From contig CAZSKP010000023.1 in assembly GCA_964607485.1 (NCBI GenBank), forward strand, positions 1 through 64,000: a stretch of 64,000 nt of DNA, read 5' to 3'. Positions 16,724-38,855 of this stretch are shown piece by piece (positions within the stretch are counted from its first letter, which is position 1; the number at the start of each line of letters is the position of its first letter). The stretch comes from an uncultured bacterium. Its GTDB lineage: Bacteria; Abyssobacteria; SURF-5. The notes below the pieces were generated by a model. The model had not been told where the DNA came from. It made no database searches and saw only the letters and a program-made list of their open reading frames with translations. A program made the translations under genes and the position numbers.

Positions 16724-16750
16724 TCTTACGGCCTTTCCGGATACTCATGC

Positions 16751-16786
16751 AAAACACCCCCTGACCGCGAGGGCGCAGGGGGTGTT
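16751..16786 (-). terminator. Intrinsic terminator after secretin gene
   Basis: AACACCCCCTG...CAGGGGGTGTT 11-bp stem followed by T-run on minus strand. Confidence 0.7.
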
Positions 16787-16803
16787 GGATTCCACATCGT
16801 TCG

Positions 16804-22622: not shown

Positions 22623-22745
22623 CCGAAGCGCGATGACAGCTACCCCCGGACATACAAAAAGTCACATGCCCACACTTGTCCCCCGCTTCGAAACTGCGGA
22701 AGAACAAAGTGACCAAAATGTTGAAACCAAAATGGTTACAGCTAA

Positions 22746-22774
22746 ATTATATATGAACACTCACGCCATGTCAA
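22746..22774 (-). promoter_or_regulatory. Consensus sigma-70 promoter of pilM-secretin operon
   Basis: TTGACA-17 nt-TATAAT exact on minus strand. Confidence 0.8.
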
Positions 22775-22870
22775 CAAAAAAATGCTTCTCGTCGAGCCTC
22801 GGCAGGCGTGTCCAACCGCGAGACCGCGCTTCCCTTCTTCGCACCGTCGCACTTCGTCCTTCGCCCCTTG

Positions 22871-25303
22871 CTATCTGAACTGTTCCTGTCTGAGCTTGAT
22901 GGGTCTTTTCTCGACTGCCTCAGGCACGTTGACCTTGAGGCGGACAGTCGCGGGAACGAACTCGTAATCTGGGTTAGAGGCGTTAGTGCGCCGCAAGTAG
23001 TCCTGCGCCCAGAACGTCACGTCGTATGTGCCGGTGACAGGATTACCCGCCGCGTCGTTGAACGTAATACTCAGCGTGTAAGGCTGCGCGGAAGGAGTCG
23101 CCGGAACACCCGTGCCGCTGGAAGTTGCAAGTGCCGGCGAGTCGGTGTTCGGGACAGGCGTTACTTGCCACGCGTAGTCATAATAGGGTAGCGAACTCCC
23201 GTCCAGTGCTGTGTCGGCGACGCCGTTGCTCGGCGCGCCGCCTTCGGCAAACACGACAAATTTCAACTTGTGGTCACTCGGCAGTTGGACCGACGAGGGC
23301 GGCGCCTTGAGCAGCAGCGTCTTGCGCTCCAGTACCCTGAGCACGAGGTCGGCCTCGCTATCCGAATCGGCTCCGTTGTCGTCCACGGTCGCGGTGAACG
23401 GATAGTCGGCCGCCGTCTCATCTATGGGAATCGTGCCGACTATATACACACGGCTTATCTTGTCCACTGTATCAAGGGTCTTGTCAGCGAGTGAAAGCCC
23501 CGAAGGCAGACCAGTTGAACTCCAGGTGACCTGGGAAACATTGGTGCTGTAAATCGCGCGCACCGCTGCCAGGCTCTGCGCCTCCATGCGCTGGTAAGTG
23601 GCCCCCGTGGCCGGATCATTACTGTACTTTATTTTCTTCACCATCGGCTTCAGCAGCTTCTTGATAATCTCCACGCCGGTCGTGCTGACATCAACCCTGT
23701 AATACTGCTCTGCCGGCTCCTCATTTCCCGACGAATCGGTGAGCCTGAGCGTAAATCCATAGCTGCCGGCATTGGTCGGGGTGCCCGAGAAGGATATTGA
23801 GCTACCCGTTGTGGAGGCCGATGGGCAAGCGTCCGCAAGCGATAGCCCGGGCGGAATTGTGCCCGAGACGATACACCACGTGTATGGAGATGACCCACCC
23901 TGGGCCGTGAATGCCTGGGAGTACGCAGTTCCCTTCACCGCGGGCGCCAGGTCGGGCCCCGGCGGGTCTATCGCCAAGCCTGCGATATGGATGCTGAGCG
24001 GCTTCTGAGCCGTTTGAACCGGGACGGACTCGTCGGAGACCTTGACGGTGAAATTATACGTGCCGGGTACCGTGTATGGTGTACTGCCGGAATAGGTGAT
24101 TCGCAGGTCATAGTTCGGGCTTCCGGTATTCGCCGAGCTGAACTCAGGCGGGAGGCTTCCGGATGTAATCTCCCACACATATCCCCCAGTCCCGATATTT
24201 CCCCCGTAAGCCACCAAGGACTCATCGTACGACGAATACTTGTTGGCGTCGGGCAGGCTCTCGGTGGCGATTGTGAGCGGAGCCTCGCCCCCGGTCATGG
24301 TGTTCCAGTCGGCCTCGACCTGTATGTCATAGATGTTGAGCTTTGCGAGGCCCGCAGGATCGCTCCCGCACAGGGGGCACGTGTCAACGCCGTCAGTGGA
24401 ACATCCCTGCTGGCGCGTGAGGATTCTCACGGCCAGGTCGGTGCTGAGAGAGTCCAATATATAGTTCGGGTCGCTGGAGTCGTCGGTCAGAAACGCGCGG
24501 TTTGCGTCGCTCGCCAACACCTGGCCGAGGACCGTGCCAGTCGGTGGATTGTCATTTATCAACGAGGCGCTGCTTATGGTCGTGCTGAACGTGGGCGGAC
24601 TACCGCCGACCCCGAGGTTTTCTATGGCGTCGCTCACGCTCCATGATGTGAACTGTCCTGGGTAGTACCGCTCAAGGACAAGCGTGTTGGCAGTTGTGTC
24701 CTTTGACACGACATAGCCCACGTCGTCATATGGCTGAGTCGTGTCGCCTCCGATGAACAGCAGGATTTCGTCGCCCGCCACCAGGCCGGTGTCGTCGGGG
24801 TCGTCGACATACCCGATGGTGAACCGGACCATCTCATTCCAGGCTGAGTCGGCGGCGGTGGGGCCTTCGACAGTGTACTCGATCTTCCACTGGTTTGCCA
24901 GATTGTTGATTCCCGCGATCCGTACGAGCAGGTCGGCGTCGGTGATGAAGGTGGTGGTCTGCTGAAAGCTCGACCACTTGCCGCTCTCCGTGAATCCCGT
25001 ATCGGGCGTCTGGAGGCCGTCGCCGAAAATGTCGGCGTCGGTGTATGTCGTGGCCGCAGTAACAAGGTTCTTGTCGAACGCGAAGCCCAGCCGCTGTGTC
25101 GAGGAGATGGTGACGTCGGACCCGCAGTCGGTCAGGTTTCCTCCCACATACGTGTGCGTTGTGGCCGCCTGAGGCCGCCAGGTGAAGTCCAAAATTTGCG
25201 CCGTCACCCAGATCGAACGAAGAAGCAGCAGCCCCAGAATTCCGAACGCTATCAGGAAGGCCGCGGCGGCCGTCACATAGCGATTACGCTCTCGCGTACT
25301 CAC
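22871..25303 (-). CDS. Surface protein with putative Ig (He_PIG-like) repeats
   Basis: N-terminal hydrophobic segment; repeats WEITSGSLPP, WCIVSGTIPPGLSL, SGTPTNAGSYGFTLRLTDS, WSSTGLPSGLSL. Confidence 0.8.
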   Translation of the reverse strand: MSTRERNRYVTAAAAFLIAFGILGLLLLRSIWVTAQILDFTWRPQAATTHTYVGGNLTDCGSDVTISSTQRLGFAFDKNLVTAATTYTDADIFGDGLQTPDTGFTESGKWSSFQQTTTFITDADLLVRIAGINNLANQWKIEYTVEGPTAADSAWNEMVRFTIGYVDDPDDTGLVAGDEILLFIGGDTTQPYDDVGYVVSKDTTANTLVLERYYPGQFTSWSVSDAIENLGVGGSPPTFSTTISSASLINDNPPTGTVLGQVLASDANRAFLTDDSSDPNYILDSLSTDLAVRILTRQQGCSTDGVDTCPLCGSDPAGLAKLNIYDIQVEADWNTMTGGEAPLTIATESLPDANKYSSYDESLVAYGGNIGTGGYVWEITSGSLPPEFSSANTGSPNYDLRITYSGSTPYTVPGTYNFTVKVSDESVPVQTAQKPLSIHIAGLAIDPPGPDLAPAVKGTAYSQAFTAQGGSSPYTWCIVSGTIPPGLSLADACPSASTTGSSISFSGTPTNAGSYGFTLRLTDSSGNEEPAEQYYRVDVSTTGVEIIKKLLKPMVKKIKYSNDPATGATYQRMEAQSLAAVRAIYSTNVSQVTWSSTGLPSGLSLADKTLDTVDKISRVYIVGTIPIDETAADYPFTATVDDNGADSDSEADLVLRVLERKTLLLKAPPSSVQLPSDHKLKFVVFAEGGAPSNGVADTALDGSSLPYYDYAWQVTPVPNTDSPALATSSGTGVPATPSAQPYTLSITFNDAAGNPVTGTYDVTFWAQDYLRRTNASNPDYEFVPATVRLKVNVPEAVEKRPIKLRQEQFR

Positions 25304-25326
25304 AAAACCATCTCCTTTTTTCTTCC

Positions 25327-25592
25327 GTCCGCAGATTACGCAGATTTTTGCTGATTATTGACATATGTATAAGCATTGCAAAAGCCTTTGTTTCGTCATT
25401 CCCGCTTACGCGGGAATCCAGAACGTCAAAATGGTTGTGAGCTTACTGGATGCCCGCTCCCCGATCGGGTCGAGGACATGTTTCGCGGGCATGACATTCC
25501 CTGCTTTACTTAAACAGAAACCTATAATCAGGAACGTTCATCCTGATGCAGTCGTTGGGTTCAATCTGCGCCCATCTGCGTAATCTGTGGAT
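25327..25592. repeat. 30-bp CRCAGAT-type inverted-repeat pair, no gene cargo
   Basis: Arms 25327-25356 and 25563-25592, 23/30 complementary. Confidence 0.85.
25395..25495. repeat. REP/dRS3-like palindromic element nested in the 30-bp pair
   Basis: GTCATTCCCGCTTACGCGGGAATCCAG ... CTGGATGCCCGC...GCGGGCATGAC. Confidence 0.85.
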
Positions 25593-25600
25593 GAAATCGG

Positions 25601-28600
25601 TCATCTCTGATAGATCACTTCCATCTTCTTCGAGGATGTCACTTCCTCTTCCTCGATGATTCCGTTGTTGTTCGCGTCGGTGGCGGCCTGGCCCAGGACG
25701 ATTATCTTGTAGACGTCTGACCTCGCGGTTATCAGCCCGGAGATGTTTCTGAACACGTCCGGCGTGAAGAAATAACCGGGATTGGCTGAGGCATCCTGCA
25801 TCTGTATTTCACTCGCCCGGTAAACGTCGCCGATCGACTCGAATGCCCGGATATTCCGTGCCTGAATTATGGCGTCGGCGTAATCGCTCTTCGTCGGCGT
25901 CTCCGACCACGCGGCCGAGGAATCGTCCAGGTTGGGCAGTTCGAGCCGCAGCCCCTGCAGCACTTGGTGGCTCGCCGTGTTGACGTTGATGCGGCCGAAC
26001 GTTTGCGGCGGCGGCGCGAGCACCGCGCGGATGAAGTGATACTGCACGGCAGCGGCGGCGGCGTTCCGGATGGTCAAGTTCAGCATGGCCTGCTGACCCG
26101 GCGAGGTCTTTGCGATCGTCACGGGACCGACGTAGATCGGAATCTCGGTTGCCTGGGTCGAGCCGTAGTTTACGACGCTGTAGAGGTCATAGGTGCCCTC
26201 CTGCACGCCGGCATCTTCATCCCATGTGAGCGTAAAGTTGGTACTCGCTCCCGGCGGGACAGTGTACACTTCCGGATCGTCCGTGTCGGGCCAGGACGCT
26301 GCGGCAGCCGTTATGAGAGAACTAAAGAGTGACCCGTTCGTCATGCTTTCGCCGACCGCCCAGTATTTGGCGACCGAAGAGGGTTTGAAGAAAATCCAAT
26401 TGTTCGTCGTATCGACACCGACGAGGCTATCAGATTCGGTTCTAGTGGAATTGGTTATAGCGCTGCCGACCGAGAGTTCGCTGTCATCGGCTAAGGCACT
26501 GTACTGGATCGCGACATTTGCCGCTGCGGCCTCGAGGTCGATGCACGCCGTGGTGAAGTAGTCGGCAAGGCCGCGCACGTCGGCGGATTTTTCACGTACA
26601 GAAGTTATGGTGGCCGCGCCCGCCGCGTAGCTTATCGTCTCGCCCACCTTCCACTCGGTGACAGGGTCGCCCGAGGCCTGATTCATTGTCAACTGGATGA
26701 CCTTGTTATCCGGATCCGTTGTATCCACAACTGTTGCAATGCCGCTCTGGTTGGGGTCTTTCGATGTGTTGGTGATCGTGTCGCTGGCCGAGGGGTCGGC
26801 CGTCTCGTTTGCGTAGCCTATCTCCACGTAGAAGTCCATCTCGTCGCCGAGGTAGGTGTCCATCATCTTCACCGAGCTGATGGTCGCGCCGAAGTCGACG
26901 GTCGGGTCGGAGCCGTCGTCTGTCATCCAGTCGCCGAACTTCCACGTGGACACGGGATTCTGGAAATCGCCCCGCAAGACCATCCAGCCGCTGGGCCCCA
27001 ACTGGTTGACGGTCGAGCCGTAGTCGGTGGTGTTGATGGCGAGGATGACGGCCGTCTGGTTGTTCTCATCCTCGTTGATGATGACATCGCCGACGCTGAG
27101 CTTGAGGTCGTCGGTGGTGCCTGCGACGGTCTCGTCGTAGCCCACGACGGCGATGTACTCATGGAAAAGCGGCGCCCTCACCAGTTCGCCGGGGCCGGCG
27201 AGGTTGCGGTCCTTCACCTTACACTCGGCCGTGGCGACGCGCCGGTCGTAGCTGACGCTCCGATTGTTCGCCTCGGCGGGTGTCATGAACCCGGCGCTAC
27301 CCCGTGAGTTGGGCGAATAGTTGACGAACTCCGTCGTCGAGAGCGTGGGATCGACGTTCGGATCGGTCAGCCACGGGTCGTTCCAGAACTTCCAGTCGTC
27401 GTAGGCGCCGTCGGCGACGACGTTGTAGTAGCCGGGGTAGTTCCAAGGATAAGAAAGCGTTGCAATATAAGAACGCATCTTGAAGTTCTGGTCGGCGTTG
27501 AGCCGTTCTCCGGGATTGGCGGGATGGTCGCGCTGCAGGCTGGCGAACGCCTCGGCCACGTTGCCTGCATCGTAGGTCACCTGGTCAACCAGGTTGCCGT
27601 TCGCATCGTAGAGCGACACCTTTCCGGCCTCAACATTGAAGACGACATCGTCAGTGCCGTCGGCGGTGCCCCGCACATCCACGGCGGAGGTATTGTTATT
27701 CGGATTGTCCAGCGGCTCATTGCCGAAGAAATCTATCCCGCCGGAATAGATGTTCGAGATGGATGCGAGTTGATAGACGTTTGCGCTTGTCGCCAGTGTG
27801 GACCATACGGTGTCGAACGAGATGCCGTTGCTGATGGTGGCAGACGCCCCCGCGTTGTCGGTTCTGTCGATAACGAACACGATGTAGTGGGGCGGCCCGG
27901 GCGCCCACACGGTCGGGTCGTCAACGGGCAGTATGCCCACGTCGGGCAGCGACAACTGAAAGCTTTCCGAAACATACTTGGCCAGCGCGGTCTCATCCAC
28001 ATCCTTCGTGTACTCCGAGACGATGGTCCAGTTATTGACGTTGACGGTCTGGTCGCCGATGTTCACCAGCTCAATCCACTCGCAGTCGGGCTCAAGCGTG
28101 AAATAGAACCAGTCGACGTCAACGTCATCAACGTAGTCTGACGCACTTCCTGACGTAGGCCGTGGCTTCTCGAAATAGACTGAGTTGTCGCCGCCATGAA
28201 GGCGCGCATCCCCGAATGTGGCGTTGTCAGACAGAATGGCTTCCTCCACGTACCACACATTATTGGGGGTGGATTGCGGCGAAGGCTTGGTCGCCCACCT
28301 GCAATTCTGGCCGTTCAAGTAACCGGTGCCTGGATCACCGGGATCGGAACCGAGCCCGGAATAAATGACCGGGTTTCCATTAACATATACTCTGAAGCCG
28401 GTGTCGGCAGTATTGGAGAGAGTTTGGGTTCCCGAGCTCCGTACTCTCATCCTAAGTTTGAACGCGTATCCGGTTGCGGAGTCGAAAGGAGGGTCAGGCA
28501 AAGTGACCGTAACCACGGCAGATGTTTCACTCGCTGAGTTGTTTGGCCACGCGTCGGGATTCGTCAGATAATCTTCAGTTCCGCGAGGCGAGCCTGCGCC

Positions 28601-30391
28601 TTGCGCTACAGGATTCAACCCATAAAAGATCGCCGTCTCCCAATCATTCGCAATCCCGGTATAAAGCCATTCCCCTTCGTACAGGTTTGTGGCGGCGCGG
28701 ACGAGGACCTCATTTATGCGGATGGCCTCGACGCCGGCGAAGACGTCTCCGGCGGTGTCGCGGAGTTCGGCGCGCGAATTGCTTCGGTCGCGATAATCGT
28801 AGATGTTCGCGGCGGCCTGCATGTTGCGGAGGTCGGGCCGTTCAAACGCATCGGTGTCGAACGCATTAATGGACGGGAAGGCGGCATGCACGGCGGCCAG
28901 GTTCTGCTCGGGTATGGAGAAGTTGGGGTTAATCCGAAGCTCCTCGTCTCTGTTCAGGTTACGGTCGTGGGAGAGGGTGGACATGAAGTGGCGACGGTCG
29001 CGCGCCGTATTGGTCGAGCCGTCGAAGTTGGTGCTGATCGTGCCGGTCAAGAAGCCGCTCAGGCCGACGGCCGCCGAGTCCTCGAGCTGCTCGAGCGTGA
29101 GTATGGGCTGGTCGTCGGCTTCGTTGGTTTCATCGGTAATTCCATTACTGTTATCGTCGGAGCCATTATAGTCAAGCGGGGTTCCCCGATACGGCCTCAG
29201 CGGGCGGAATTCCTCCGGCTCGTTAATCCCCTCTGTCGCCTCATCGACGGTGCCGTCGCCGTCGTTGTCAACGCCGTCGTTGGCATAGAACAGCCGGTTG
29301 TAGTTGTCGTCGTCGTCGTTGAAGCTGGCCGGGTCGTACGTGGTCGTGTCGGACCACATGTCGTTCTGGCCGGGAACATAAATCCGGTTTTTATCCGTGC
29401 CGTCGCCGGGAGTAAACGTCCAGCCCGGCCCGGGCGACGCGGTCGGCGGGAACCCCCGCCGATACATGGTGATATTCCTCGCCTCAGTGGAGGTTGCATT
29501 GAGGCCGTCGGTGAGGCTGATCTCAAATGGGCTCCATCCCTCGTTCGCTCCGTGTCCCCAGCCGTTGGAATAGTCCTTCCACGTTCCGACGAGGTTGGCG
29601 AGATTGCCCGCGACGTTGATGTTGATCTTGCTCTGCTCGTCTAGGATGAGCACGGCGTAGCGGCCGATGAGGTTGCCGCTCTGGTCGTAGTAGTTGTGCC
29701 AGATGGCGTCGAGTGTGCTGGGATCGCTGGAGTCATAGTCGCCGTCGAGGTCAACCTCGTCGGGCTTGGAGACGGTGACGACCGCGACATTAAATAGATT
29801 GCTGGCCTGGTCGCGTTTTCCGACCAGTCTGTCGCCAACCTCCCAGAGTGCGGTCGAAAGCGAGTTGAGGTACAGGAGGTTATTGTTGGTGTCGATGGCA
29901 ATGACCTTCGCCGTGACCCCTTCGCGGGGCGGATCGGCGTCGGCGGGCTCGACGTTCGTTACCGTGTCGCCCGCCGCGAGCCCCAACTCGTTGCCATCGG
30001 TTATCGTGTCGTCGTAACTGATGACCACCGGGGCGGAGAACATCCGCCGCCAGTCGTCGCGGAGCGAGTCGTAGGTCTCGGTCACGGGCACAGTCGGGTC
30101 GCGCAGGTCGCCGGTGCGTTTTATCTTGTCGGCCTCGAGCACGTAGATGGCGTTGGCCGCTCCCGCCTCGGCGATGTCGGTGGCGGTGACGGTGCGCATG
30201 TACGCCTCGGATGCGCGCAGACTCAGGCGTGTCGAGAACACGAACGAGACGGCCATGACCGTCAAGAGCGCGAGTATGCCCAGCACGACGATCAACACCG
30301 CGCCGCTGTTAGAACGGCGAATTTTCACAAGAAGAGAACCTTTAATAGCCACATACTTCACTAAGCTCAAGAGACTTTTCCAGAAATGCAT
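25601..30391 (-). CDS. Giant PilX/GspK-like minor pilin (~1590 aa) with lamin-tail-like and HhH-like segments
   Basis: G-AVLIVVLGILALL (no E5), AEAG, DEQSKININ, IRINEV...EWIELVN, GRINVNTAS, ITARSDVYKI; start may be GTG 30328. Confidence 0.85.
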   Translation of the reverse strand: MHFWKSLLSLVKYVAIKGSLLVKIRRSNSGAVLIVVLGILALLTVMAVSFVFSTRLSLRASEAYMRTVTATDIAEAGAANAIYVLEADKIKRTGDLRDPTVPVTETYDSLRDDWRRMFSAPVVISYDDTITDGNELGLAAGDTVTNVEPADADPPREGVTAKVIAIDTNNNLLYLNSLSTALWEVGDRLVGKRDQASNLFNVAVVTVSKPDEVDLDGDYDSSDPSTLDAIWHNYYDQSGNLIGRYAVLILDEQSKININVAGNLANLVGTWKDYSNGWGHGANEGWSPFEISLTDGLNATSTEARNITMYRRGFPPTASPGPGWTFTPGDGTDKNRIYVPGQNDMWSDTTTYDPASFNDDDDNYNRLFYANDGVDNDGDGTVDEATEGINEPEEFRPLRPYRGTPLDYNGSDDNSNGITDETNEADDQPILTLEQLEDSAAVGLSGFLTGTISTNFDGSTNTARDRRHFMSTLSHDRNLNRDEELRINPNFSIPEQNLAAVHAAFPSINAFDTDAFERPDLRNMQAAANIYDYRDRSNSRAELRDTAGDVFAGVEAIRINEVLVRAATNLYEGEWLYTGIANDWETAIFYGLNPVAQGAGSPRGTEDYLTNPDAWPNNSASETSAVVTVTLPDPPFDSATGYAFKLRMRVRSSGTQTLSNTADTGFRVYVNGNPVIYSGLGSDPGDPGTGYLNGQNCRWATKPSPQSTPNNVWYVEEAILSDNATFGDARLHGGDNSVYFEKPRPTSGSASDYVDDVDVDWFYFTLEPDCEWIELVNIGDQTVNVNNWTIVSEYTKDVDETALAKYVSESFQLSLPDVGILPVDDPTVWAPGPPHYIVFVIDRTDNAGASATISNGISFDTVWSTLATSANVYQLASISNIYSGGIDFFGNEPLDNPNNNTSAVDVRGTADGTDDVVFNVEAGKVSLYDANGNLVDQVTYDAGNVAEAFASLQRDHPANPGERLNADQNFKMRSYIATLSYPWNYPGYYNVVADGAYDDWKFWNDPWLTDPNVDPTLSTTEFVNYSPNSRGSAGFMTPAEANNRSVSYDRRVATAECKVKDRNLAGPGELVRAPLFHEYIAVVGYDETVAGTTDDLKLSVGDVIINEDENNQTAVILAINTTDYGSTVNQLGPSGWMVLRGDFQNPVSTWKFGDWMTDDGSDPTVDFGATISSVKMMDTYLGDEMDFYVEIGYANETADPSASDTITNTSKDPNQSGIATVVDTTDPDNKVIQLTMNQASGDPVTEWKVGETISYAAGAATITSVREKSADVRGLADYFTTACIDLEAAAANVAIQYSALADDSELSVGSAITNSTRTESDSLVGVDTTNNWIFFKPSSVAKYWAVGESMTNGSLFSSLITAAAASWPDTDDPEVYTVPPGASTNFTLTWDEDAGVQEGTYDLYSVVNYGSTQATEIPIYVGPVTIAKTSPGQQAMLNLTIRNAAAAAVQYHFIRAVLAPPPQTFGRINVNTASHQVLQGLRLELPNLDDSSAAWSETPTKSDYADAIIQARNIRAFESIGDVYRASEIQMQDASANPGYFFTPDVFRNISGLITARSDVYKIIVLGQAATDANNNGIIEEEEVTSSKKMEVIYQR

Positions 30392-30400
30392 TTTTTTCTT

Positions 30401-30869
30401 ATCCGCAGATTGCGCAGATTCTCACAGATTTCTCCGTTTCAATTCCGCCACTTTTCCATTTCCATGGATGAATCTTCTAAACTCCAATGAGGCGGCGCCG
30501 AAGTTAAGCAATAGACCGACTTCCTTCTTTGCCGCTTTCAAATAATTGATGACCTGAGATTCTTCGTTTGGAGTCAATCTTGAAAGTGCCTTGATTTCAA
30601 CTACGACAGAATCGGAAGCCAAAAAATCGGGACTGTACTTTTTCTTCAAGAAGATATCCTTATATCGGATTTCGATCTGCGGCTCATCGGAATATGAAAC
30701 GCCTTTTCGTGTCATCTCAATCCCAAGAGCTTCGTGATATACTGGCTCAAGGAAGCCCGGTCCAAGCTCCTTGTGCACTTCCATTGCAGCGCCTATAACC
30801 TCATAAGTGATTTCTGCAAATGGGTACTTGTCCATATTCAATCTGTGCAAATCTGCGTAATCTGCGGAT
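30401..30869. mobile_element. Putative cassette: 30-bp inverted repeats enclosing a GxxExxY gene
   Basis: Arms 30401-30430 and 30840-30869, 27/30 complementary; interior about 45% GC by hand count (30481-30780); mobility is inferred. Confidence 0.6.
30422..30835 (-). CDS. GxxExxY protein (PD-(D/E)XK nuclease-like)
   Basis: IGAAMEVHKELGPGFLEPVY, PDFL...VVVEIKA, QVINYLKA, GLLLNFG. Confidence 0.95.
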   Translation of the reverse strand: MDKYPFAEITYEVIGAAMEVHKELGPGFLEPVYHEALGIEMTRKGVSYSDEPQIEIRYKDIFLKKKYSPDFLASDSVVVEIKALSRLTPNEESQVINYLKAAKKEVGLLLNFGAASLEFRRFIHGNGKVAELKRRNL

Positions 30870-30880
30870 TATCATCCCGT

Positions 30881-32938
30881 TCATCTTGCCGTTGAGAGCC
30901 AGACGGTGGTGCTGAGAATGACCGGCTCGAGCGTTTGCTGCGGGTCTTGGACCGCGATGGTGATGCGCACGGCCTTCGGCAGCGTGTCGTCGTCGGGGTC
31001 GGCCTCGTCGGGCTCGTCGATTCCCTCGGGCTTGCCCGCCGGCTCGTAGAACCGGTCATCGACCATGTTGTCGGAGTCGTCGTCCAATAAGTCGTTTGTT
31101 TCGTCAACGACCGTTCCCGTGTTGTCGGACTCGGGCGTGGCATAATCGATAAGCTGTCCGTCCGACAGGGTGATGAGCGTTCCGGTTCCATCATAATGGG
31201 TGTTGAGTCTGTCGTCGTTTTGACCATCCTGATCATCATCGGTGCTGTTGTATGCGATGCCGGAGCCCGCGCTCCCATCTCCGTAATCGTAATCATCGTC
31301 CCATCCGTTCAGCTCACTCGCCCTTCTCGGATTGCGCGGGTCGGGTGAGCGGCTGTCCCAAATGCCCATCACGCGGCTGTCGAGCCGCTTGTTGCCCTCG
31401 CCGATGCTCGTCTCGGAGGTGGTGCCGTCGTTGTCGCTCACGTTGTTCGGGATATCAGAGCCGCCATCGTCGAGCGGATCGTTGACGATCCCGTCGGCGC
31501 CGAGGTCCTCGGGGAACACAGGGTTCGACACGGTACCCGTGTTGTCGAGGATTCCGTTCGCCTGTGTCGGCTCGATGATACGATAATTTACCGTGCCACT
31601 TGTTCCCGTGTAAGGACGATTCAACTGCAGATTACCTGACACGATGTCAGTGATTGCATAAACATCATTATTGGGATCGGCGGTGTCGAATGTATAACCC
31701 GTGGGAGGCGAGGAAGGCCAGACCATGAATGTTCCTCCAACGAGTTTGGTGAGCGTCGCGGGCCAGACGGGAACATCGATGGTGTCTGGAGCTACTTGAT
31801 CGCTGCCCTTGGTCACTTGTACTTTACCGCTCTTTATCGCAAGCGGGCCCAAATCGTTCGAGTCACTCAATTCCCCTTCACAATCCGTCCCCATGTCCTC
31901 TCCCCGAACATCCTGGTATCCCCAGCCGACGCCCCAGACCTCGGGCGAGCCATCGGATTTCAACGCGATTGCGATCTTTCCGTAGAACTCAAGCTGGAGG
32001 TCGTAGATGTATGAGCCGATGCTCTCGCCGTCGTTCGACGACAGAAAATCATTAAAGTCTCGGGCGGGGTAGCGGCCCTGTGTCGTGCCGGTCGGCAACT
32101 CGTTGGCGGTTTGCCTATTGTTGACGGAAAACGGATTCTTATCGGGTGTGATATCGAGCCCGCGGCTCAGTTGGAACAGAGAGAGGCCTTTTATCTTCCT
32201 GGTCACGGGATTGAAGTCGTCCTTGTGGCCCATCGGTATCAGGTCGCCAAGACCGGTGAGGCCGCCCGCGCCCGGCGGGGTGTAGTCAGATGCGTCGACC
32301 AAACTGTCATAGTCGTTATCCACGTCGTCGATGAACGTCTCGGTGGTGACGATGTAGCGCACCTCTGCCAGCCGCGATTGATTACTGGTGTTGCCGGGGA
32401 AAAGGCGCGTGAAGCAGGTGAAGTCGAGCCTGTCGGGCGGGCCGGGTGACAGTGTGTAGATATCGCTGATGGCTTTGATCGACAGCGTGGTGTATATGGG
32501 AGCGCCGAAACCGCTGTCGGCATACAGCCTGAACACCTCGATGCCTGTTGGGTCGACGCCGTGAGGAGTCTGGGCGTTGCCGAGGCCGCGGTATGTGATG
32601 TTGTAAGTTCCGGGCGGGTTTTCGTAATATTCCAGGATGCTGCTTCCCCGGCCGGCCAGGCCGTCGGCGCTTATGAATATGAAATCGCGGTTGCGGTTGT
32701 CGATGTATGCGTTCTTAATCTCCCCGGCCATGATGTCGAGCGCGACGCGCGCATTCTGGTAAATCTGCTCGCGGGCCTCGCCGATGGCGGCGCTGCGCTG
32801 GGTGGTCTGGAACGCGGCAATGACGCCGAGTATGAGTATGCTCGCTATCGCCACCGCGACGAGCAGCTCAACGAGAGTGACGCCCTTTTGACCGCGACTA
32901 CTCACGGACCGAGGTCCTTTCCCAACTTTGGATTCCAC
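30881..32938 (-). CDS. PilW/GspJ-like minor pilin, 685 aa
   Basis: G-VTLVELLVAVAI prepilin motif, QNARVALD, C-terminal LPKAVRITI. Confidence 0.88.
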   Translation of the reverse strand: MESKVGKGPRSVSSRGQKGVTLVELLVAVAIASILILGVIAAFQTTQRSAAIGEAREQIYQNARVALDIMAGEIKNAYIDNRNRDFIFISADGLAGRGSSILEYYENPPGTYNITYRGLGNAQTPHGVDPTGIEVFRLYADSGFGAPIYTTLSIKAISDIYTLSPGPPDRLDFTCFTRLFPGNTSNQSRLAEVRYIVTTETFIDDVDNDYDSLVDASDYTPPGAGGLTGLGDLIPMGHKDDFNPVTRKIKGLSLFQLSRGLDITPDKNPFSVNNRQTANELPTGTTQGRYPARDFNDFLSSNDGESIGSYIYDLQLEFYGKIAIALKSDGSPEVWGVGWGYQDVRGEDMGTDCEGELSDSNDLGPLAIKSGKVQVTKGSDQVAPDTIDVPVWPATLTKLVGGTFMVWPSSPPTGYTFDTADPNNDVYAITDIVSGNLQLNRPYTGTSGTVNYRIIEPTQANGILDNTGTVSNPVFPEDLGADGIVNDPLDDGGSDIPNNVSDNDGTTSETSIGEGNKRLDSRVMGIWDSRSPDPRNPRRASELNGWDDDYDYGDGSAGSGIAYNSTDDDQDGQNDDRLNTHYDGTGTLITLSDGQLIDYATPESDNTGTVVDETNDLLDDDSDNMVDDRFYEPAGKPEGIDEPDEADPDDDTLPKAVRITIAVQDPQQTLEPVILSTTVWLSTAR

Positions 32939-32949
32939 GAAAGACTCTC

Positions 32950-33124
32950 ATCCGCAGATCTCACAGATTTTCACAAATGTCCCCTCAGCAAGAGTCATCA
33001 ATCAGACGCTCACGGAACCACCAAGGCACAAAGGCACAAAGAAAAACTCTCCTTTTCTTCTACTTCGTGTCTTGGTGCCTTTGTGGTTCATTTTTGTCTG
33101 CGCCAATCTGCGTAATCTGCGGAT
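32950..33124. repeat. 30-bp CRCAGAT-type inverted-repeat pair, no gene cargo
   Basis: Arms 32950-32979 and 33095-33124. Confidence 0.85.
33015..33089. repeat. Nested 27-bp CACNAAG-type (8-bp period) inverted-repeat pair
   Basis: GAACCACCAAGGCACAAAGGCACAAAG / CTTCGTGTCTTGGTGCCTTTGTGGTTC, 23/27 complementary, 21-nt loop. Confidence 0.88.
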
Positions 33125-33135
33125 TCCCTCATCTC

Positions 33136-34206
33136 TTATCTAAACTGGTTGGGGATGGAGGCGCTGAAGCTGGCGGCGCGGTCCTGGCCGCCCTCGCGCC
33201 AGCCGACGGTGACCGTTACCTTCTGTATGAAATCGTCCGGCCATGCGTCTATCTGCCCGTTGCCCTCGCTGCCGTTCGGGTCGACCTCGATGAGTGAATC
33301 AGTCCCGTTGGTATACCAATAGTACGATGGCGGACCGGCATATGACCTATACGCATATTTGTTGTCGCCGTGCGGGTCGGTCGATCCGTTGAAGCCGGTT
33401 TCGCCGATTCGGTCGGGGCCCGCCTGGTATCCGGCCGTTCCCGTGCCGATCGAGCTCATGTCTGAATCCCAGAAATCCGGCACGAGGTCCAAGCCGGTAT
33501 CCTCTTGTACGCGTTCCTGAATTCCATAAGCTGAGAGGTCTCGAACCGTTCCATCGGGCAATCGTCCCTCAAGGATGCCGTTCAGATTCTGGTCTTCTGT
33601 CATGGGCGCGCGCATTGCGTACCAGTAATAAGGAACGCCCCCGCGCATCTCGAGGTTGATAAGTATCTTGTCGCCGGCGGCGAATTCGTCGTAATCCTTG
33701 TCGTAAACGGGACTGTAAACGCTGGCCAGGTCGGGGCCGTCCTCGTTGTTGTACAGGATGAACGCGATGGAGTTATCGGTTGAAGTGTATATCGCATCCA
33801 CCTGTCCGGCGGGCGTGAGGGGTCCCCTGATAGAGTTCGTCACCGTGAAGTCTGTGGCGCTCGTGAAATCTATCCGCCACCACTGCTCCTGCGCCGGCTC
33901 GGTCGGGAAGCGGAGGGGCGAGAGGTAGCCCTTCACGGCCGAGACGGGGAGCTCGAAGTAGCCGAGGCCGTTGCCGTTGACCTCTCCGAAGCCCCTGTCG
34001 CTCGGGTCGTACAACTGCGTTGCGGCGCGGATGTCGTCGAGTGCCTGCTGGCCGATGAACGAGGCGGTCGTGAAGTCGCCCGCCAGGCGTGAGGACCGCA
34101 GCCCGACGGGAAAGAGCGTCACGAGCGCAATCAGGCCGACCCCGATGATGGCCATCGAGATGAGCACCTCGATGAGTGTGAAGCCTCTTGAAGCCGGCGA
34201 TTTCAT
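33136..34206 (-). CDS. PilV/GspI-like minor pilin
   Basis: G-FTLIEVLISMAII; C-terminal KVTVTVGW. Confidence 0.88.
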   Translation of the reverse strand: MKSPASRGFTLIEVLISMAIIGVGLIALVTLFPVGLRSSRLAGDFTTASFIGQQALDDIRAATQLYDPSDRGFGEVNGNGLGYFELPVSAVKGYLSPLRFPTEPAQEQWWRIDFTSATDFTVTNSIRGPLTPAGQVDAIYTSTDNSIAFILYNNEDGPDLASVYSPVYDKDYDEFAAGDKILINLEMRGGVPYYWYAMRAPMTEDQNLNGILEGRLPDGTVRDLSAYGIQERVQEDTGLDLVPDFWDSDMSSIGTGTAGYQAGPDRIGETGFNGSTDPHGDNKYAYRSYAGPPSYYWYTNGTDSLIEVDPNGSEGNGQIDAWPDDFIQKVTVTVGWREGGQDRAASFSASIPNQFR

Positions 34207-34212
34207 TTTCTC

Positions 34213-34294
34213 AACCACGGATTCGCACGGATTTCTTCAGAGCATCCACTAAGGGCGCGAAGGACCACGAAGGAAACACTTCGTGAGCTTCGTG
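34213..34294. repeat. CACGGAT-type arm plus CRCGAAG-type hairpin
   Basis: AACCACGGATTCGCACGGATT at 34213; CACTAAG-gg-CGCGAAG-gac-CACGAAG against CTTCGTG-ag-CTTCGTG. Confidence 0.7.
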
Positions 34295-34343
34295 AACAAA
34301 TCTTTGCAACCGTAAAGCGCAAGCCGTAGGCGGTAGCACCCAT

Positions 34344-35159
34344 TTATGATTCGCCGTCCTTCTTCCGGTCCCAGCCGCTGCCGCTTCCGTCGTCCCACGC
34401 ATAATCATACACCTTCACGCCGCCGGTGATCGGGTTGACCACAAGCGTGTAGTAATAGATATCGGTGGGTGAGTCGGAGCTGGGAAGCGAGAAGAACACC
34501 TGCTGATTGCTGGCGTTATTGATAACGAGCCCGGGCGGCACGCCGAGCGCATTGATGTTGGAGAGGGCCTGGGCGGCGGTTCCGCCGGGAATCTCCCTTC
34601 TGTCATCCTGGACGTTCCACAGGTAGATTTCGGCCGAGTCAGCCGTTCCCGTGGGCTGAAATTTGACGAGGTGATAAACGAGATTGACAATGCCGTTGGT
34701 TGCGGACGGAACGCCTGCGGAATCTACCTGGGGATTGAAGAGGGTATCGGTTTCCAACGGTGGCACCGTCCACACGTCTTCTGATCCGTTCAGGTTGACG
34801 TCGTCGGTCCTGGTGATATCCAGGTAGGTCCATCCGGGAGTGGTCACAGCCACGACGGCGATGTGATCGGCGAGCTTGTGCGCCTGACCTACCTGAGCCC
34901 ATGTCGTACCTGTCCATCTCATCTCCACGAACTCCGCGGGTATCGAATATATGTCGAGAGCCAGTGCTCTCAGTTCTCCCTTTGTTATCGCCTCACGCCG
35001 CGCGGCGCGAAGCGCGGACGTTATGTCACTCGCCGCGGCTTTGAGTCCGGCGCCCTGCTGCTGAAAAACGAATCGAGGGACAACGATGGCCATCATGAGC
35101 GTGATGATGGCCACCACGACCAACAGCTCGGCGAATGTGTAGCCTCTGCTGTCTTTCAT
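34344..35159 (-). CDS. FimT/GspH-like minor pilin
   Basis: G-YTFAELLVVVAII, LRAARREAI, KFQPTG, VVNPITGGVK. Confidence 0.88.
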   Translation of the reverse strand: MKDSRGYTFAELLVVVAIITLMMAIVVPRFVFQQQGAGLKAAASDITSALRAARREAITKGELRALALDIYSIPAEFVEMRWTGTTWAQVGQAHKLADHIAVVAVTTPGWTYLDITRTDDVNLNGSEDVWTVPPLETDTLFNPQVDSAGVPSATNGIVNLVYHLVKFQPTGTADSAEIYLWNVQDDRREIPGGTAAQALSNINALGVPPGLVINNASNQQVFFSLPSSDSPTDIYYYTLVVNPITGGVKVYDYAWDDGSGSGWDRKKDGES

Positions 35160-35170
35160 AGTTTTTATTT

Positions 35171-35416
35171 CACCCGCGAAAATCTGCACATCATGCGGAT
35201 TCATTTCAATAATACACCGGGTCCGGCGCGTGAGCACCGCCGTAGAGATGCTCGATTCACCCGGACCCGGTGTTACCCGGGGAAAGGGCTCTTTATGAAA
35301 ACATTTTGGATTTTGGATTTTGGATTAACCTCCGTCGTGTATTTATCGCCTCTTTCCCGTCTCCGCTTGCCTCGCGTGCTTCGCGCAGTTGCGGCAAAAT
35401 CCGTAATCCGCAATCG
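35171..35416. repeat. Cluster of palindromic elements
   Basis: Degenerate 30-bp arm 35171-35200; 13-bp perfect stem 35214-35226/35261-35273; (ATTTTGG)x3 at 35303-35323 against AAAATCC-GTAATCC-GCAATCG at 35396-35416. Confidence 0.75.
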
Positions 35417-35419
35417 AGA

Positions 35420-36673
35420 TCATCCGCCGTAGCTGGCATGGTCACGCCACGGACGCTTGTTGTTCCAACTGTTTATGTCGTCGCCGCCGATGTCGAGCTG
35501 ATCCTTAGTGTTATAGTGATACTTAGTAGCGACGCCGGGGAAATACCCGAAATCTTCGGTACGTATATCAGCGCCAGTACCGGAGGTGAGTTCTCCGTCG
35601 TCTTCCCCGGTGTCCTTCGTGCCCGGAATGCCGTCTAGTCCGGTATCCTCATAGCCCGTGTCCAGGGATGTATCCGAGTCAAGGTCTTCGTCGAAGGTGC
35701 CCGGAGCATCATCGACGTTGAGAAGAGGATGCTGCGCATCGCTTCCGTCGTTGACGATGTAGTTGAGGTTTATATCCTCATAGCCCGTCGCCGTCTCGTC
35801 CTTCTTGTTTCGGCCGATGCAGTAGATGTAGTAGCCGACATTTCGCGCGAGTCCGTCCGGAGAGATGTCCTTGTTTCCGTATTCAAGCACAACCGGCGAG
35901 CCGGAGGTTATTTGGTATCTTTGAATCACTCCGTCCTTGTTATCATCGTCTCCGTGGTCCAGTATTCCGTTCCCGGCGCCCGCTTTCATGTCGAGGAAAC
36001 TCACGAGCGGCGCGACGGCCGTCGTACGAACCTGCGTTGTATTAGAAGTATCAAAGTCGGCGATTCCGATATCCTCTCCCGGGTCGAGCCGACCGTTTTC
36101 GTTTGCGTCCTCGGAAGTGATGAGGTCACCGGTATCGCCCGGGTTGATCCACAGGAAATCCGATGCTGCGCTCGTGCCCTCCGGCCTGCGCATGGGCGCA
36201 TAATAGACGTACCGGCTACCCCACGGGTCGAGAGGGATTTCCTTCAGGTATGGGCCGCTCTTCGCCGTGGTCTTAAGGGCCCACTCGAGGTCGAGGATGT
36301 TTATGACTCCGTCGCCGTGGTCGAGCCGACCATTCGGAGGGGAAAGGGGGTCACCATTGTTCTGACAAGCGTAGTCGGGTTCACCGTCACCGTTTATGTC
36401 AACGCCTATGTCCTCGCCGGGGTCGAGTTTCCCGTTGTTGTTTATGTCCTCCGTCGGGAACACATCGCCGGGATAGGTTCCGAAGTCGGCATGGTAGGCT
36501 GCCAGCGCCGCCTCTATTTCGGCTATCTGGTCCTCGGCCGCATTCATGCGCGCTCTCGTGAGCCGGCCGGCTAAGTTGGGAACGACTATTGAGATGAGAA
36601 GAACAATGATTGCGACAACCACCAGGAGTTCGGTGAGGGTGAATCCGCGGCTGTCCCCGTGCGCACGAGGCAT
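35420..36673 (-). CDS. GspG-like major (pseudo)pilin with Asp-rich insertions
   Basis: G-FTLTELLVVVAII, ALAAYHADFGTYP, GPYLKEIPLDPWG, DDINSW; AAGGAG RBS (alternative start 36679). Confidence 0.88.
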   Translation of the reverse strand: MPRAHGDSRGFTLTELLVVVAIIVLLISIVVPNLAGRLTRARMNAAEDQIAEIEAALAAYHADFGTYPGDVFPTEDINNNGKLDPGEDIGVDINGDGEPDYACQNNGDPLSPPNGRLDHGDGVINILDLEWALKTTAKSGPYLKEIPLDPWGSRYVYYAPMRRPEGTSAASDFLWINPGDTGDLITSEDANENGRLDPGEDIGIADFDTSNTTQVRTTAVAPLVSFLDMKAGAGNGILDHGDDDNKDGVIQRYQITSGSPVVLEYGNKDISPDGLARNVGYYIYCIGRNKKDETATGYEDINLNYIVNDGSDAQHPLLNVDDAPGTFDEDLDSDTSLDTGYEDTGLDGIPGTKDTGEDDGELTSGTGADIRTEDFGYFPGVATKYHYNTKDQLDIGGDDINSWNNKRPWRDHASYGG

Positions 36674-36944
36674 TTTCATTCTCCTTTCGTGGCCCTTTTC
36701 TCGAGAATCGGCCCGATTGTGAAACCCCATCTGGGGTTATTTAACATATAAAAGCCCATTTAGGGAACTCCGACCTCCGAAGCACCGCAATGAGTGAGAT
36801 ACCCCACGTACTGAGCCAATCTCTGTGTGGAACAGTCACATCTGTCTCTGGTCAAAACAGTTGCGTCACCAGCCCCTTCTCTCAAGGTCGAGTGCACAAG
36901 TTGTGGGCATGATGCAAGTCCCACCTACCCACCTTCTTAATCCG

Positions 36945-36960
36945 AGCAATTAATGTGCCA
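36945..36960 (-). promoter_or_regulatory. Sigma-54 (-24/-12) promoter of pilin operon
   Basis: TGGCAC-ATTAA-TTGCT on minus strand. Confidence 0.8.
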
Positions 36961-37325
36961 CGATTACGACCGCGAGAGCAACGGTTTATAGACATCTGCA
37001 AGTATATCAAAAACAACAGCTTACATTCGTAGGAAAACAGGGCTGCAATCATCGCGCGCTCGGTGGGCCGGCCCCTTGACATCCTGCGAGTAGCATTTTG
37101 ACCAGCGCCTTTGTCGTTTTATATGTAAGCAACTGATGACAAGGTTCTTATGACATGATGTATTCCGACCCGTTCTGTGGCTTGTTCTGATACACGAACT
37201 CCTTTCCCTCGGTCGTTTGCGGGTTTCGACGGAATCAGAAAGCCGGAAAGAAAAGAAGACGCTCCCGCAGAGGCCGCGCCACGGCCTCGGGGAGCGCTCA
37301 GACGTTTTCAGACTGAGGGCTTGGT

Positions 37326-38855
37326 TCATAAGGCGATTTTGTGAGTCTCTATCTTCCTGTCCAATGTGGAGCGAGAAATGCCCAACAGTTCCGCCGCCTT
37401 TTTCTTCACTCCCTCCGCGCGCTGCAGCGCCGAGATGATGTGTACCCTTTCAAGCTCGTTCAGGCTGGGAAACGCCCTCGGGCCGGCGATTGCCTCCTTT
37501 TCCTTTCCCGGCTGCGCAAGCAGCGGGAAATGCTCGCATTTGATCTCTTCGCCCTCACACAACAACACGGCGCGCTTGATCATGTTTTTCAGTTCTCTCA
37601 CGTTGCCGGGCCAATCGTAGTCGAGCAGGAAATTTTTTGCGGGCAGCGACATGGATCTGACATTCTTGTCGAATTGCCGGTTGAACTCGTCCAGGTAGTG
37701 CTCGACAAGCAGCATTGTGTCTTCGCGCCGCTCCTTGATGGGCGGCAGATGAACCTGAATCTGGTCAAGCCGGTAGTAGAGGTCGTCGCGGAACAGGCCC
37801 TGTTTTACCGATTGCGAGAGGTCGCGATTGGTTGTGGCGAGCAGTCTGACATCGGTGGAGATGGTCGCATTGCTGCCGATCCTCTCGAACCGCTGCTCTT
37901 CGATGGCCCGAAGGAGCTTCGCCTGCGCGCGGGGCGAAAGTTCGGCTATTTCATCGAGACAGAGGGTGCCGTTGTCGGCGAGCTCAAATTTGCCCTTGCG
38001 CTGGTAGGTCGCGCCGGTGAACGCGCCTTTCTCGTGTCCGAACAGTTCCGACTCTATGAGCGTATCGGGTATGGCGGCGCAGTTGACTTCGACAAAAAGC
38101 TGGTGGCGCCGCTGGCTGTTCTCGTGTATGAAGCGGGCGACCAGGCCCTTGCCCGTTCCGGTTTCCCCGGTGATGAGCACGGTGACATCGGTTCCCACCA
38201 CCTTGTTTACCATCGCGAAGATGTTCCTCATGGTTTCGCTGTTGCCGATGATGGTGGGCTGCAGCCCGAGCACCCGGCTGAGGGTCTCCTTTTCCGAGCT
38301 GACCGCGGTGAAGAGCCTCGCATTGCGGACCGCGACAGCAATCGAATCGCTCACCGCGCACAAAAACTCCATGTCCTCCTCGTCGAAGCACTGCTTGCGC
38401 CGCGGGTTGATTACCTCGATGGAGCCGACGATTTTCCCCTCGACGGAAAGGGGGGCGCACACGATGCTCCGCGTCGGCATACCGACGCGGTTCGAGATGT
38501 CGTGGCGCACGCGCTTGTCGGATTGAGCGTCGGAGATGAGGAGCGGCCGCCCGTCGAGCGCCACCAGTCCCGCCACTCCCTCGCCCAGTTTCAGCCGGAA
38601 CTTCTTTATCTCGTCCCTCGCGGCGCCGGCGGCGCTGCGGAAGTAGAGCTCCTCCGTGCCGGGCTGTCGCAAGACCAGCGAGCACCCTTCGGCGTCCAGG
38701 GCGACGGAGACGGTCTCAATGACAAGGTCGAGGAGATTATCGATTTCGAGGGTGGAGTTGATGATGTTGCTGATTTCCACAAGCTTGCGATAGCGGTCGA
38801 ATTGGGTCGGAGCACGCATCATTGCTCTCGCAGGAATGGTCGAATCGTTCCTCAT
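37326..38855 (-). CDS. GAF-containing sigma-54 enhancer-binding protein
   Basis: GAF (GEGVAGLV), GETGTGKG, GAFTGA, WPGNVREL, HTH. Confidence 0.93.
   Translation of the reverse strand: MRNDSTIPARAMMRAPTQFDRYRKLVEISNIINSTLEIDNLLDLVIETVSVALDAEGCSLVLRQPGTEELYFRSAAGAARDEIKKFRLKLGEGVAGLVALDGRPLLISDAQSDKRVRHDISNRVGMPTRSIVCAPLSVEGKIVGSIEVINPRRKQCFDEEDMEFLCAVSDSIAVAVRNARLFTAVSSEKETLSRVLGLQPTIIGNSETMRNIFAMVNKVVGTDVTVLITGETGTGKGLVARFIHENSQRRHQLFVEVNCAAIPDTLIESELFGHEKGAFTGATYQRKGKFELADNGTLCLDEIAELSPRAQAKLLRAIEEQRFERIGSNATISTDVRLLATTNRDLSQSVKQGLFRDDLYYRLDQIQVHLPPIKERREDTMLLVEHYLDEFNRQFDKNVRSMSLPAKNFLLDYDWPGNVRELKNMIKRAVLLCEGEEIKCEHFPLLAQPGKEKEAIAGPRAFPSLNELERVHIISALQRAEGVKKKAAELLGISRSTLDRKIETHKIAL

Follow-up and report, generated by a model that had tools for sequence, protein, structure and literature searches.

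The window, a stretch of 64,000 nucleotides (nt) of DNA from an uncultured bacterium (contig C23, positions 1–64000), carries on its minus strand an operon of type II secretion-like pseudopilin genes, as identified by profile searches of the window proteins. The gaps of this operon probably contain five elements, or remnants of elements, that belong to a family of small intergenic repeats spread over the whole genome and built from inverted arms of repeated seven-base words (heptamers). One of them encloses a gene for a small predicted nuclease of the GxxExxY family. In the explanation that we favour as reasonably probable, the nuclease reads its own heptamer and moves both the gene-bearing cassettes and the gene-less hairpins, whose copies cluster.

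The genome, designated G000, comprises 4.70 Mb in 93 contigs with 57% G+C. The gene calls of this analysis assign 85% of it to genes and leave about 15% intergenic. Comparisons were made within the small phylum of this bacterium, for which the collection searched holds 11 species genomes; the relatives are labelled G003, G005, G007, G009 and G010.

Each arm consists of two or three heptamers (usually three) of the form CRCNRRD, 8–10 bases apart, with WCC at the outward end. Paired arms take one of three layouts: a hairpin of about 55–120 nt with a short loop, a nested arrangement around another element, or a cassette of about 0.46 kb around a gene. A preliminary description of the window had proposed that such elements share one grammar, to be judged by a genome-wide search against shuffled sequence, by pairing of the arms and by their placement. 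The strict grammar (three CRC-N4 words with 1–3 nt spacing and tails within one mismatch) finds 148 arms in the genome and 18–27 in five order-3 Markov shuffles, and 106 of the 148 are intergenic. Looser CRCNRRD triplets give 137 matches (109 intergenic) versus 27, 29 and 46 in shuffles. Chance and low complexity are thereby ruled out as the source of the arms. Two-unit matches, 1342 genome-wide and about 1450 in shuffles, were dropped from the counts as noise. The arms mostly face one another, with a partner within 1.5 kb for at least 67 of 111 arms, a lower bound in which two-unit partners are uncounted. The proposed outer end, RWC, fits fewer arms: over the 111 arms, C directly precedes the first heptamer in 98 and WC in 89, and the full RWC is found in only 63.

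When tripled 7-mers of any kind are searched for without bias, the same heptamer families emerge, together with purine-rich tracts of the GGGRAAAAG type. These tracts lie on the outer side of many arms (C17:89–146, C62:125–151, C78:6004–6038 and C39:26033–26064, and the gaps of L014 and L016). The inverted repeat may therefore extend beyond the heptamers.

The 111 arms of recognised types fall in 56 loci and occupy 52 of the 3679 gaps of G000. About eleven heptamer types are present: CGCAAAG with 31 arms, CGCAGAT with 12, CACCAAG with 11, CACAGAT and CACGGGG with 9 each, CACGGAT and CACAGAG with 7 each, CACGAAG with 6 and CACAAAG with 5, plus smaller types. All copies examined lie between protein-coding genes. 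Occupied gaps are co-directional in 67%, convergent in 17% and divergent in 15%, so that operons are not favoured. Several contigs start or end in arms (C17:156, C18:128, C62:161, C66:141, C2:209130). As the repeats break the assembly, the counts of elements and genes are lower bounds.

The gene enclosed by arms in the window is the following.

30422..30850, minus strand: GxxExxY / PD-(D/E)XK nuclease gene, co-oriented with the operon; likely start ATG at 30835, just inside the arm

Its product, of 137–142 residues, matches TIGR04256 with an E-value of 3e-40 and 137 bits (curated cut-off 35) and PF13366 with an E-value of 7e-39 and 133 bits (curated cut-off 22). Residues G32, E35, Y38, D75, E85 and K87 do not vary among the 14 aligned paralogues. 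The fold is predicted with confidence (predicted local distance difference test score 88). A sequence search of solved structures returned no relative of the protein; the nearest solved folds, all weak, are Cas4 SSO0001, archaeal Hjc resolvases and lambda exonuclease (E-values 6e-4 to 5e-3, template modelling scores 0.36–0.48). On these sequence grounds the protein is a member of the GxxExxY / PDDEXK_3 family with PD-(D/E)XK catalytic residues, and a predicted nuclease.

The linkage between this gene family and the arms is complete in G000. Each of the seven GxxExxY genes has arms around or next to it, and no two of them share a heptamer type.

C23 (window): CGCAGAT
C18: CACCAAG
C66: CACAGAT
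C19: CACGGGG
C15: CACGGAG
C8: CGCAAAG / CGCCAAG
C62: CGCTAAT / CGCGAAT

Three of these cassettes consist simply of arm, gene and arm, and their arms abut the start and stop codons; the other four carry a complete hairpin on one side of the gene. By our own assignment, 85 of the 111 arms share their heptamer type with one of the seven resident cassettes. Across the phylum (11 genomes), all 28 distinct cassettes have CRCNRRD heptamers beside the gene, and 27 of the 28 show one type at least twice on one side. Since the same arms enclose a GxxExxY gene in the operon and at six other genes, the gene-less pairs are plausibly non-autonomous derivatives, as the preliminary description had proposed; orthologous sites that lack the elements, described below, agree with this. 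The best reading of the gene-less pairs is that they are hairpins derived from the nuclease cassettes.

Split or truncated GxxExxY genes that are still flanked by CACGAAT arms were also seen, at G005:C61:117–463 with 1921–2267 and at G009:C11:47836–48093. The latter sits in the H-I gap of the orthologous operon.

The heptamers, not the spacers, are what paired arms have in common. In 17 arm pairs, arm-to-arm identity is 336 of 358 heptamer positions (94%) and 20 of 59 spacer positions (34%); the heptamer positions are marked by the search pattern itself, which inflates the first value somewhat, and the near-random spacers are unaffected. Selection for pairing would preserve complementarity in the spacers as well, which an array of binding sites does not require. 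Because the spacers are not complementary and one word stands three times in each arm, the heptamers can be read as sites for a sequence-specific reader. The pattern favours a reader of this kind over selection for an unbroken stem. Integron attC cassettes were considered, since many arms have AAC...GTT ends. Arms of other types, however, have ATC or CAC ends, and the copies are scattered and do not form an array; on this inspection of sequences, made with no integrase search, attC cassettes were rejected.

The protein and its arm type have diverged together. A tree of the 28 proteins has its deepest split (support 100/97) between a group of 12 with arms ending in G and a group of 16 with arms ending in T or A, and sub-clades carry CACGGRG, CGCCGAT, CACGGAT and CGCAGAT. 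The arm labels need 8 changes on the tree versus a mean of 13.8 when shuffled, with none of 200 shuffles as low. Clade-specific residues include F33/L, A106/L, a Gly column and a two-residue C-terminal insert. Homologues outside the phylum were sought by a single-protein scan with the window protein, which gave six loci. The closest relatives of the window protein found there also have arms: a homologue in a metagenome-assembled genome (MAG) of Poribacteria, 74% identical to the window protein, has CGCAGAT arms; the Methylophaga homologue (54%) has CGCAGAT / CACAGAT arms, and that of a Verrucomicrobiota MAG has CACAGAT / CACCGAT arms.

Arm numbers in the relatives were counted as doublets of two types, for which reversed-pattern controls gave 0–1.

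G003: 71 CACGAAT doublets, 41 CGCAGAT doublets
G009: 109 CACGAAT doublets, 89 CGCAGAT doublets
G005: 61 CACGAAT doublets, 11 CGCAGAT doublets
G007: 6 CACGAAT doublets, 4 CGCAGAT doublets
G010: 0 CACGAAT doublets, 37 CGCAGAT doublets

The counts in G010 fit its gene content, which includes genes of the CGCAGAT and CACAGAT types and none of the CACGAAT type. The two types together had suggested that G007, in which no GxxExxY gene is detectable, has few arms. This statement is withdrawn, for the general pattern gave 86 three-unit matches in that genome versus 19 in the reversed control.

The arrays might instead be binding sites of a host DNA-binding protein, such as a regulator or a nucleoid protein, with the GxxExxY gene a passenger or homing gene that invades the sites without reading them. 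Repeated, phased words with free spacers resemble iterons or operator arrays, and the arms kept by G007 would fit. About eleven heptamer types in one genome, however, would need as many host factors. Arm type also tracks the phylogeny of the enclosed nuclease, across phyla too, and arms occur in all kinds of gaps with no tie to a gene class. We regard this alternative as very improbable.

The genes of the operon in the window are listed here in the order of transcription.

35420-36730, minus strand: GspG-like gene
34344-35237, minus strand: GspH-like prepilin gene
33136-34218, minus strand: GspI-like prepilin gene
30881-32938, minus strand: GspJ-like prepilin gene
25601-30391, minus strand: gene for a GspK-like protein of 1596 residues
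22871-25303, minus strand: gene for an Ig-domain protein of 810 residues

Gap 1 lies between the genes for the K-like and the 810-residue protein, gap 2 between J and K, gap 3 between I and J, gap 4 between H and I, and gap 5 between G and H. Besides the nuclease gene in gap 2, they contain the following features.

25327..25356, plus strand: gap 1 left arm with CGCAGAT-type units, two of them clear and the third decayed
25563..25592, minus strand: gap 1 right arm, three CRCAGAT units
30401..30430, plus strand: gap 2 left arm of the gene-bearing cassette, three CGCAGAT/CACAGAT units; outer end 9 nt from the K-like start codon
30840..30869, minus strand: gap 2 right cassette arm, separated by 11 nt from the J-like stop codon
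32950..32978, plus strand: gap 3 outer left arm, CGCAGAT type
33017..33087, no strand assigned: gap 3 nested inner hairpin element, CACNAAG, arms 33019-33041 / 33063-33085
33096..33124, minus strand: gap 3 outer right arm, three CGCAGAT units, 11 nt from the I-like stop codon
34213..34237, plus strand: gap 4 single arm of two CACGGAT units, adjoining the I-like start
34244..34297, no strand assigned: gap 4 short hairpin element, CRCGAAG type, arms 34247-34272 / 34279-34294
35171..35202, minus strand: gap 5 degenerate CGCAGAT-type arm, 74% to the reference copy
35214..35273, minus strand: gap 5 operon-specific hairpin of 60 nt, outside the heptamer grammar, kept in four genera
35303..35415, minus strand: gap 5 AATCC-repeat tract (35303-35326) and GGATT-unit tract (35397-35415)

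A repeat search of the window finds three inverted pairs: 25323–25356 / 25563–25596 (34 nt, 76% complementary), 30401–30430 / 30840–30869 (30 nt, 90%), which encloses the gene, and 32950–32969 / 33105–33124 (20 nt, 85%). It thus recovers the two gene-less pairs that the preliminary description had placed at 25327/25592 and 32950/33124. Four right arms form a direct family, at 25568–25594, 30845–30871 and 33100–33126 and, in degenerate form, at 35176–35202. The sister families CACNAAG in gap 3 and CRCGAAG in gap 4 were likewise found where they had been described. Both single arms that had been taken for degenerate copies of the same arm are real: the one at 35171–35200 is indeed a degenerate CGCAGAT-type arm, while the one at 34213 is of a different type, with two CACGGAT units. 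The claim that all five gaps are filled is clear for four; the fifth (35238–35419) holds mostly the hairpin outside the grammar, with degenerate arms. The absence of elements from the rest of the window was confirmed. Of the window's 20 gaps of at least 60 nt, a set that excludes the nuclease-gene gap, which the gene call splits, four gaps of the operon have heptamer doublets, and one more occurrence lies at 16154–16803.

In gap 1, the 206 nt between the arms contain no gene and hold two other palindromic repeat families. The inner CACNAAG hairpin of gap 3 has 86% identity over 77 nt with a solo hairpin at C1:196090–196166. The degenerate arm of gap 5 has a better-kept equivalent at the same relative place in G003 and G007. 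The AATCC and GGATT tracts of that gap together look like a decayed arm pair, and related tracts are found in G003 and G009.

Orthologous sites show that the elements can be present or absent. Four loci of G000 outside the operon that bear elements were taken as controls, namely those preceding secA, hflX and the citrate synthase gene and the queC-folE2 gap. Their 17 orthologues in five relatives have, taken together, a single three-unit arm. The queC-folE2 spacer is compact in G007, G005 and G009, and it holds a hairpin of about 90 nt in G000.

The copies also cluster. Fourteen gaps hold at least two heptamer types, versus 1.2 expected (maximum 5 in 1000 simulations), and 8 adjacent pairs of gaps are occupied versus 0.71 expected. 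Four consecutive occupied gaps occur nowhere in the genome but in the pseudopilin operon, and 0 of 20000 simulations produced such a run. In the orthologous operon, G003 has five of five gaps occupied, with GxxExxY cassettes in H-I and J-K; G009 has four of four, with the truncated GxxExxY gene in H-I; and G007 has four occupied and one masked by N. The more distant G010, of the same class, has compact gaps of which none of eight is occupied, though its genome carries arms. The heptamer types of the operon elements differ among the genomes. In the J-K gap, G000 and G003 have cassettes, of the CGCAGAT and CACGGAT types respectively, and G007 has a CACGAAT hairpin; the cassette proteins of G000 and G003 are not sisters in the tree. 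This gap was therefore filled more than once. The pseudopilin operon is a real, conserved hot spot within the bacterial family.

The hot spot bears on the preliminary reading of the elements, by which non-autonomous derivatives target, or are kept in, surface-structure operons as a class. Both pilin-type loci with arms are type II secretion pseudopilin clusters, and pilin-adjacent gaps are enriched when this operon is included (3 of 29 versus 49 of 3650, p = 0.0075). Without it, arms are found in 1 of 25 pilin-adjacent gaps versus 47 of 3647 elsewhere (p = 0.28), a weak test in that the strict prepilin pattern missed some pilins. Of 93 proteins that flank the 53 loci outside the operon, two are pilin-like, both at one locus (C6:120776–122051), and 91 do not belong to surface structures. 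The other flanking proteins, among them SecA, GatB, citrate synthase, UvrC, HflX, QueC, regulators and radical-SAM enzymes, are nearly all housekeeping, metabolic or regulatory. The empty gaps of the G010 operon also speak against such targeting. A preference for this class of operon is very improbable and a general targeting is not supported; what stands of the claim is the narrower hot spot in a single operon.

The main rival to the explanation by mobile elements is selection for intercistronic hairpins. The hairpins would be exapted RNA elements, kept between cistrons as signals for mRNA processing or stability that set the ratio of major to minor pseudopilins, and mobility would explain only their arrival. 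They could act as 3′ stabilisers, like repetitive extragenic palindromic (REP) sequences, or as RNase III sites, like ribosomal RNA (rRNA) intervening sequences. All four genera of the family in which this operon is present carry elements in it, despite the turnover of heptamer types, and a CGCAGAT-type arm stands at the same place after the G-H hairpin in G000, G003 and G007. At the second pilin locus, too, an element lies directly after the GspG-type gene (C6:121416–121533). Gap 3 is predicted to fold as nested stems (-80.2 kcal/mol, z = -7.5), and for gap 1 the z value is -5.3. The cassette gene runs in the same direction as the operon. The intervening sequence of Coxiella is described, in the accessible text of the source, as a 428-nt hairpin-bounded element with a small ORF (open reading frame) that is excised by RNase III (PMC4990558).

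Several results do not fit an RNA function. The spacers of the arms are not complementary (20 of 59), and a triple word in each arm is needless for a stem. The directions of the flanking genes give no operon bias. Gap 4 folds no better than shuffled sequence (z = -1.3). Rfam 15 gave no match at an E-value up to 0.1 in window positions 22000–38000, and no terminator-like site was found within the gaps in a search for intrinsic terminators. G010 has the same operon with compact gaps. The RNA explanation is rather unlikely as an account of the whole, and it is not exclusive of an ancestral colonisation of the operon by mobile elements.

The operon-specific hairpin of gap 5 is a separate case. It sits just after the GspG-like gene and is followed by a U/A-rich tail. 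Its 16-bp basal stem is identical in four genera, whereas the apical stem varies with three compensatory pairs. Equivalents are at L013:4447–4506 and in L014 and L016, and no second copy was found in the genome. For the major pseudopilin, this hairpin may act as an attenuator or stabilise the 3′ end of the mRNA.

In the mobile-element explanation, the copies of a heptamer on both arms would be binding sites for the nuclease of that type, comparable to the several transposase sites in transposon ends. The nuclease would cut or recombine DNA at the arms, and so move or copy the cassettes and, in trans, the gene-less hairpins, by a logic like that of REPIN/RAYT systems. New copies would land mostly in or beside old ones, and a gap once colonised would thus stay a landing pad. 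The operon may have been colonised in the ancestor of four genera of the family and since re-colonised by different types. Colonisation would be sustained by the preference of new copies for old ones and by the tolerance of the gaps for inserts.

A number of points weigh against this mechanism. To our knowledge, no PD-(D/E)XK protein this small acts alone as a transposase. No target-site duplication was seen by eye in the 35-nt flanks of 17 pairs, which show no fixed insertion distance either, and no transposition intermediate was seen. The types CACGGAT, CACAGAG and CACGAAG, with 20 arms, have no resident gene in G000. The Geobacteraceae homologue, which lies outside the 28 proteins of the tree, is 55% identical to the T-type window protein and has CACGAAG arms. 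Protein and arm would diverge together also if they were simply inherited as one unit; recognition predicts such a pattern, which is no proof. The arms of G007 (97% complete, 330 contigs) are present with no GxxExxY gene detected: the arms may outlast the gene, or the genes may be missing from the assembly, since many of the arms are at contig ends. Interleaved arms at some loci (e.g. C78) are not explained by simple insertion into loops.

The closest logic is that of REPIN/RAYT systems and the closest layout that of the ORF-bearing intervening sequences of 23S rRNA. REPIN/RAYT systems consist of dispersed intergenic repeat doublets and a REP-associated tyrosine transposase, according to the parts of the reports available (PMC3116915, PMC3337134, bioRxiv 10.1101/2022.05.22.493013). 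As far as these parts describe them, the likeness extends to dispersed intergenic hairpin populations, one small gene per repeat type flanked by its own repeat, gene-less copies that far outnumber the gene, several orthogonal types per genome and long persistence. Gene-less inverted doublets that match the gene-flanking repeat are found here as well (85 of 111 arms by type, at least 67 of 111 paired). In contrast, the gene here encodes a PD-(D/E)XK nuclease of about 125 residues and not an HUH/Y1 transposase, the arm is three repeated heptamers with non-complementary spacers and not a single short palindrome, and the gene is inside the hairpin loop. Within 5 kb of any of the five Y1_Tnp genes in G000 there is no heptamer arm.

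The 23S rRNA intervening sequences of Coxiella and Leptospira are hairpin-bounded selfish elements of about 0.4–0.5 kb with one small ORF, tolerated because the stem can be processed, as the source states in its accessible part (PMC4990558). The cassettes share the hairpin boundary, the size and the single small ORF within a transcribed unit. They differ in lying in spacers of protein genes and not in helix 25 or 45 of 23S rRNA, and in that the ORF is GxxExxY and not the four-helix-bundle S23p; TIGR02436 (S23p) has no match in G000.

A third comparison concerns the ends of transposons. The inverted ends of Mu and Tn7 carry several copies of a short word, and miniature inverted-repeat transposable elements (MITEs) are short non-autonomous derivatives that also insert into one another. 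Arms with a repeated short word, gene-less derivatives and elements inside one another are found here too, and so are presence and absence at orthologous sites, as in MITEs. Unlike these systems, no DDE or other known transposase is present, and the inverted arms come with no target-site duplication that was found.

A search by family name and identifier found no published description of the gene-plus-arms unit; most subscription journals are outside its coverage, and absence is unproven. The nuclease-linked repeat system is apparently undescribed and has the look of a new kind of mobile DNA. The function of the PDDEXK_3 family is listed as unknown in one publication (PMC3424549). If the mobile-element explanation is true, a cognate DNA word and a selfish-element lifestyle would give the widespread GxxExxY / PDDEXK_3 family a testable role, and the system would be a nuclease-based counterpart to REPIN/RAYT systems. 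The several matched protein-heptamer pairs in one genome offer a natural series on how a 125-residue nuclease fold reads DNA. The operon hot spot is a place to ask whether the repeats are tolerated or tune polycistronic expression. For annotation, the arms matter in that they break assemblies and yield spurious small ORFs. A more speculative extension, which we hold only as a tentative possibility, is that GxxExxY proteins form a large class of word-tuned mini-nucleases, each driving its own hairpin population, with at least seven orthogonal replicators side by side in one genome that cross phyla, and that in this bacterial family the hairpins are also co-opted as fixed intercistronic signals of a secretion-pilus operon.

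Distances from the arms to start or stop codons are not fixed, ranging from 9 nt to more than 1 kb. Larger ORFs are found between facing arms at C8:11921–12775, C69:5662–7005, C78:4562–5587, C7:98982–99968 and C10:18685–19560. Four of them (284, 447, 341 and 328 residues) have no Pfam match, and one (291 residues) has RNase_T exonuclease and BRCT domains. These ORFs may represent further cargo, or ordinary genes that two elements happen to flank. At C78:4389–5994, arms of two types are interleaved (+A +B ... -A -B) and not nested.

The two palindromic families within gap 1 occur elsewhere as well. The second family of this gap, at 25398–25421, consists of ATTCCCGC and GCGGGAAT separated by 3–6 nt, and it has 22 copies in the genome. 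Some copies of the ATTCCCGC/GCGGGAAT family adjoin heptamer arms (C33:19975, C38:15005), and none is near the five Y1_Tnp genes. The third family, at 25450–25496 (ATGCCCGC ... GCGGGCAT), has 4 copies in the genome. A palindrome related to it occupies the queC-folE2 gap of G003.

The longest-ORF starts at 34205–34218 and 30835–30850 are probably too far upstream, and the listed GTG and TTG starts fall inside arms. For the GspI-like gene (33136–34218), the likely start is the ATG at 34207, which yields MKSPASRGFTLIE.

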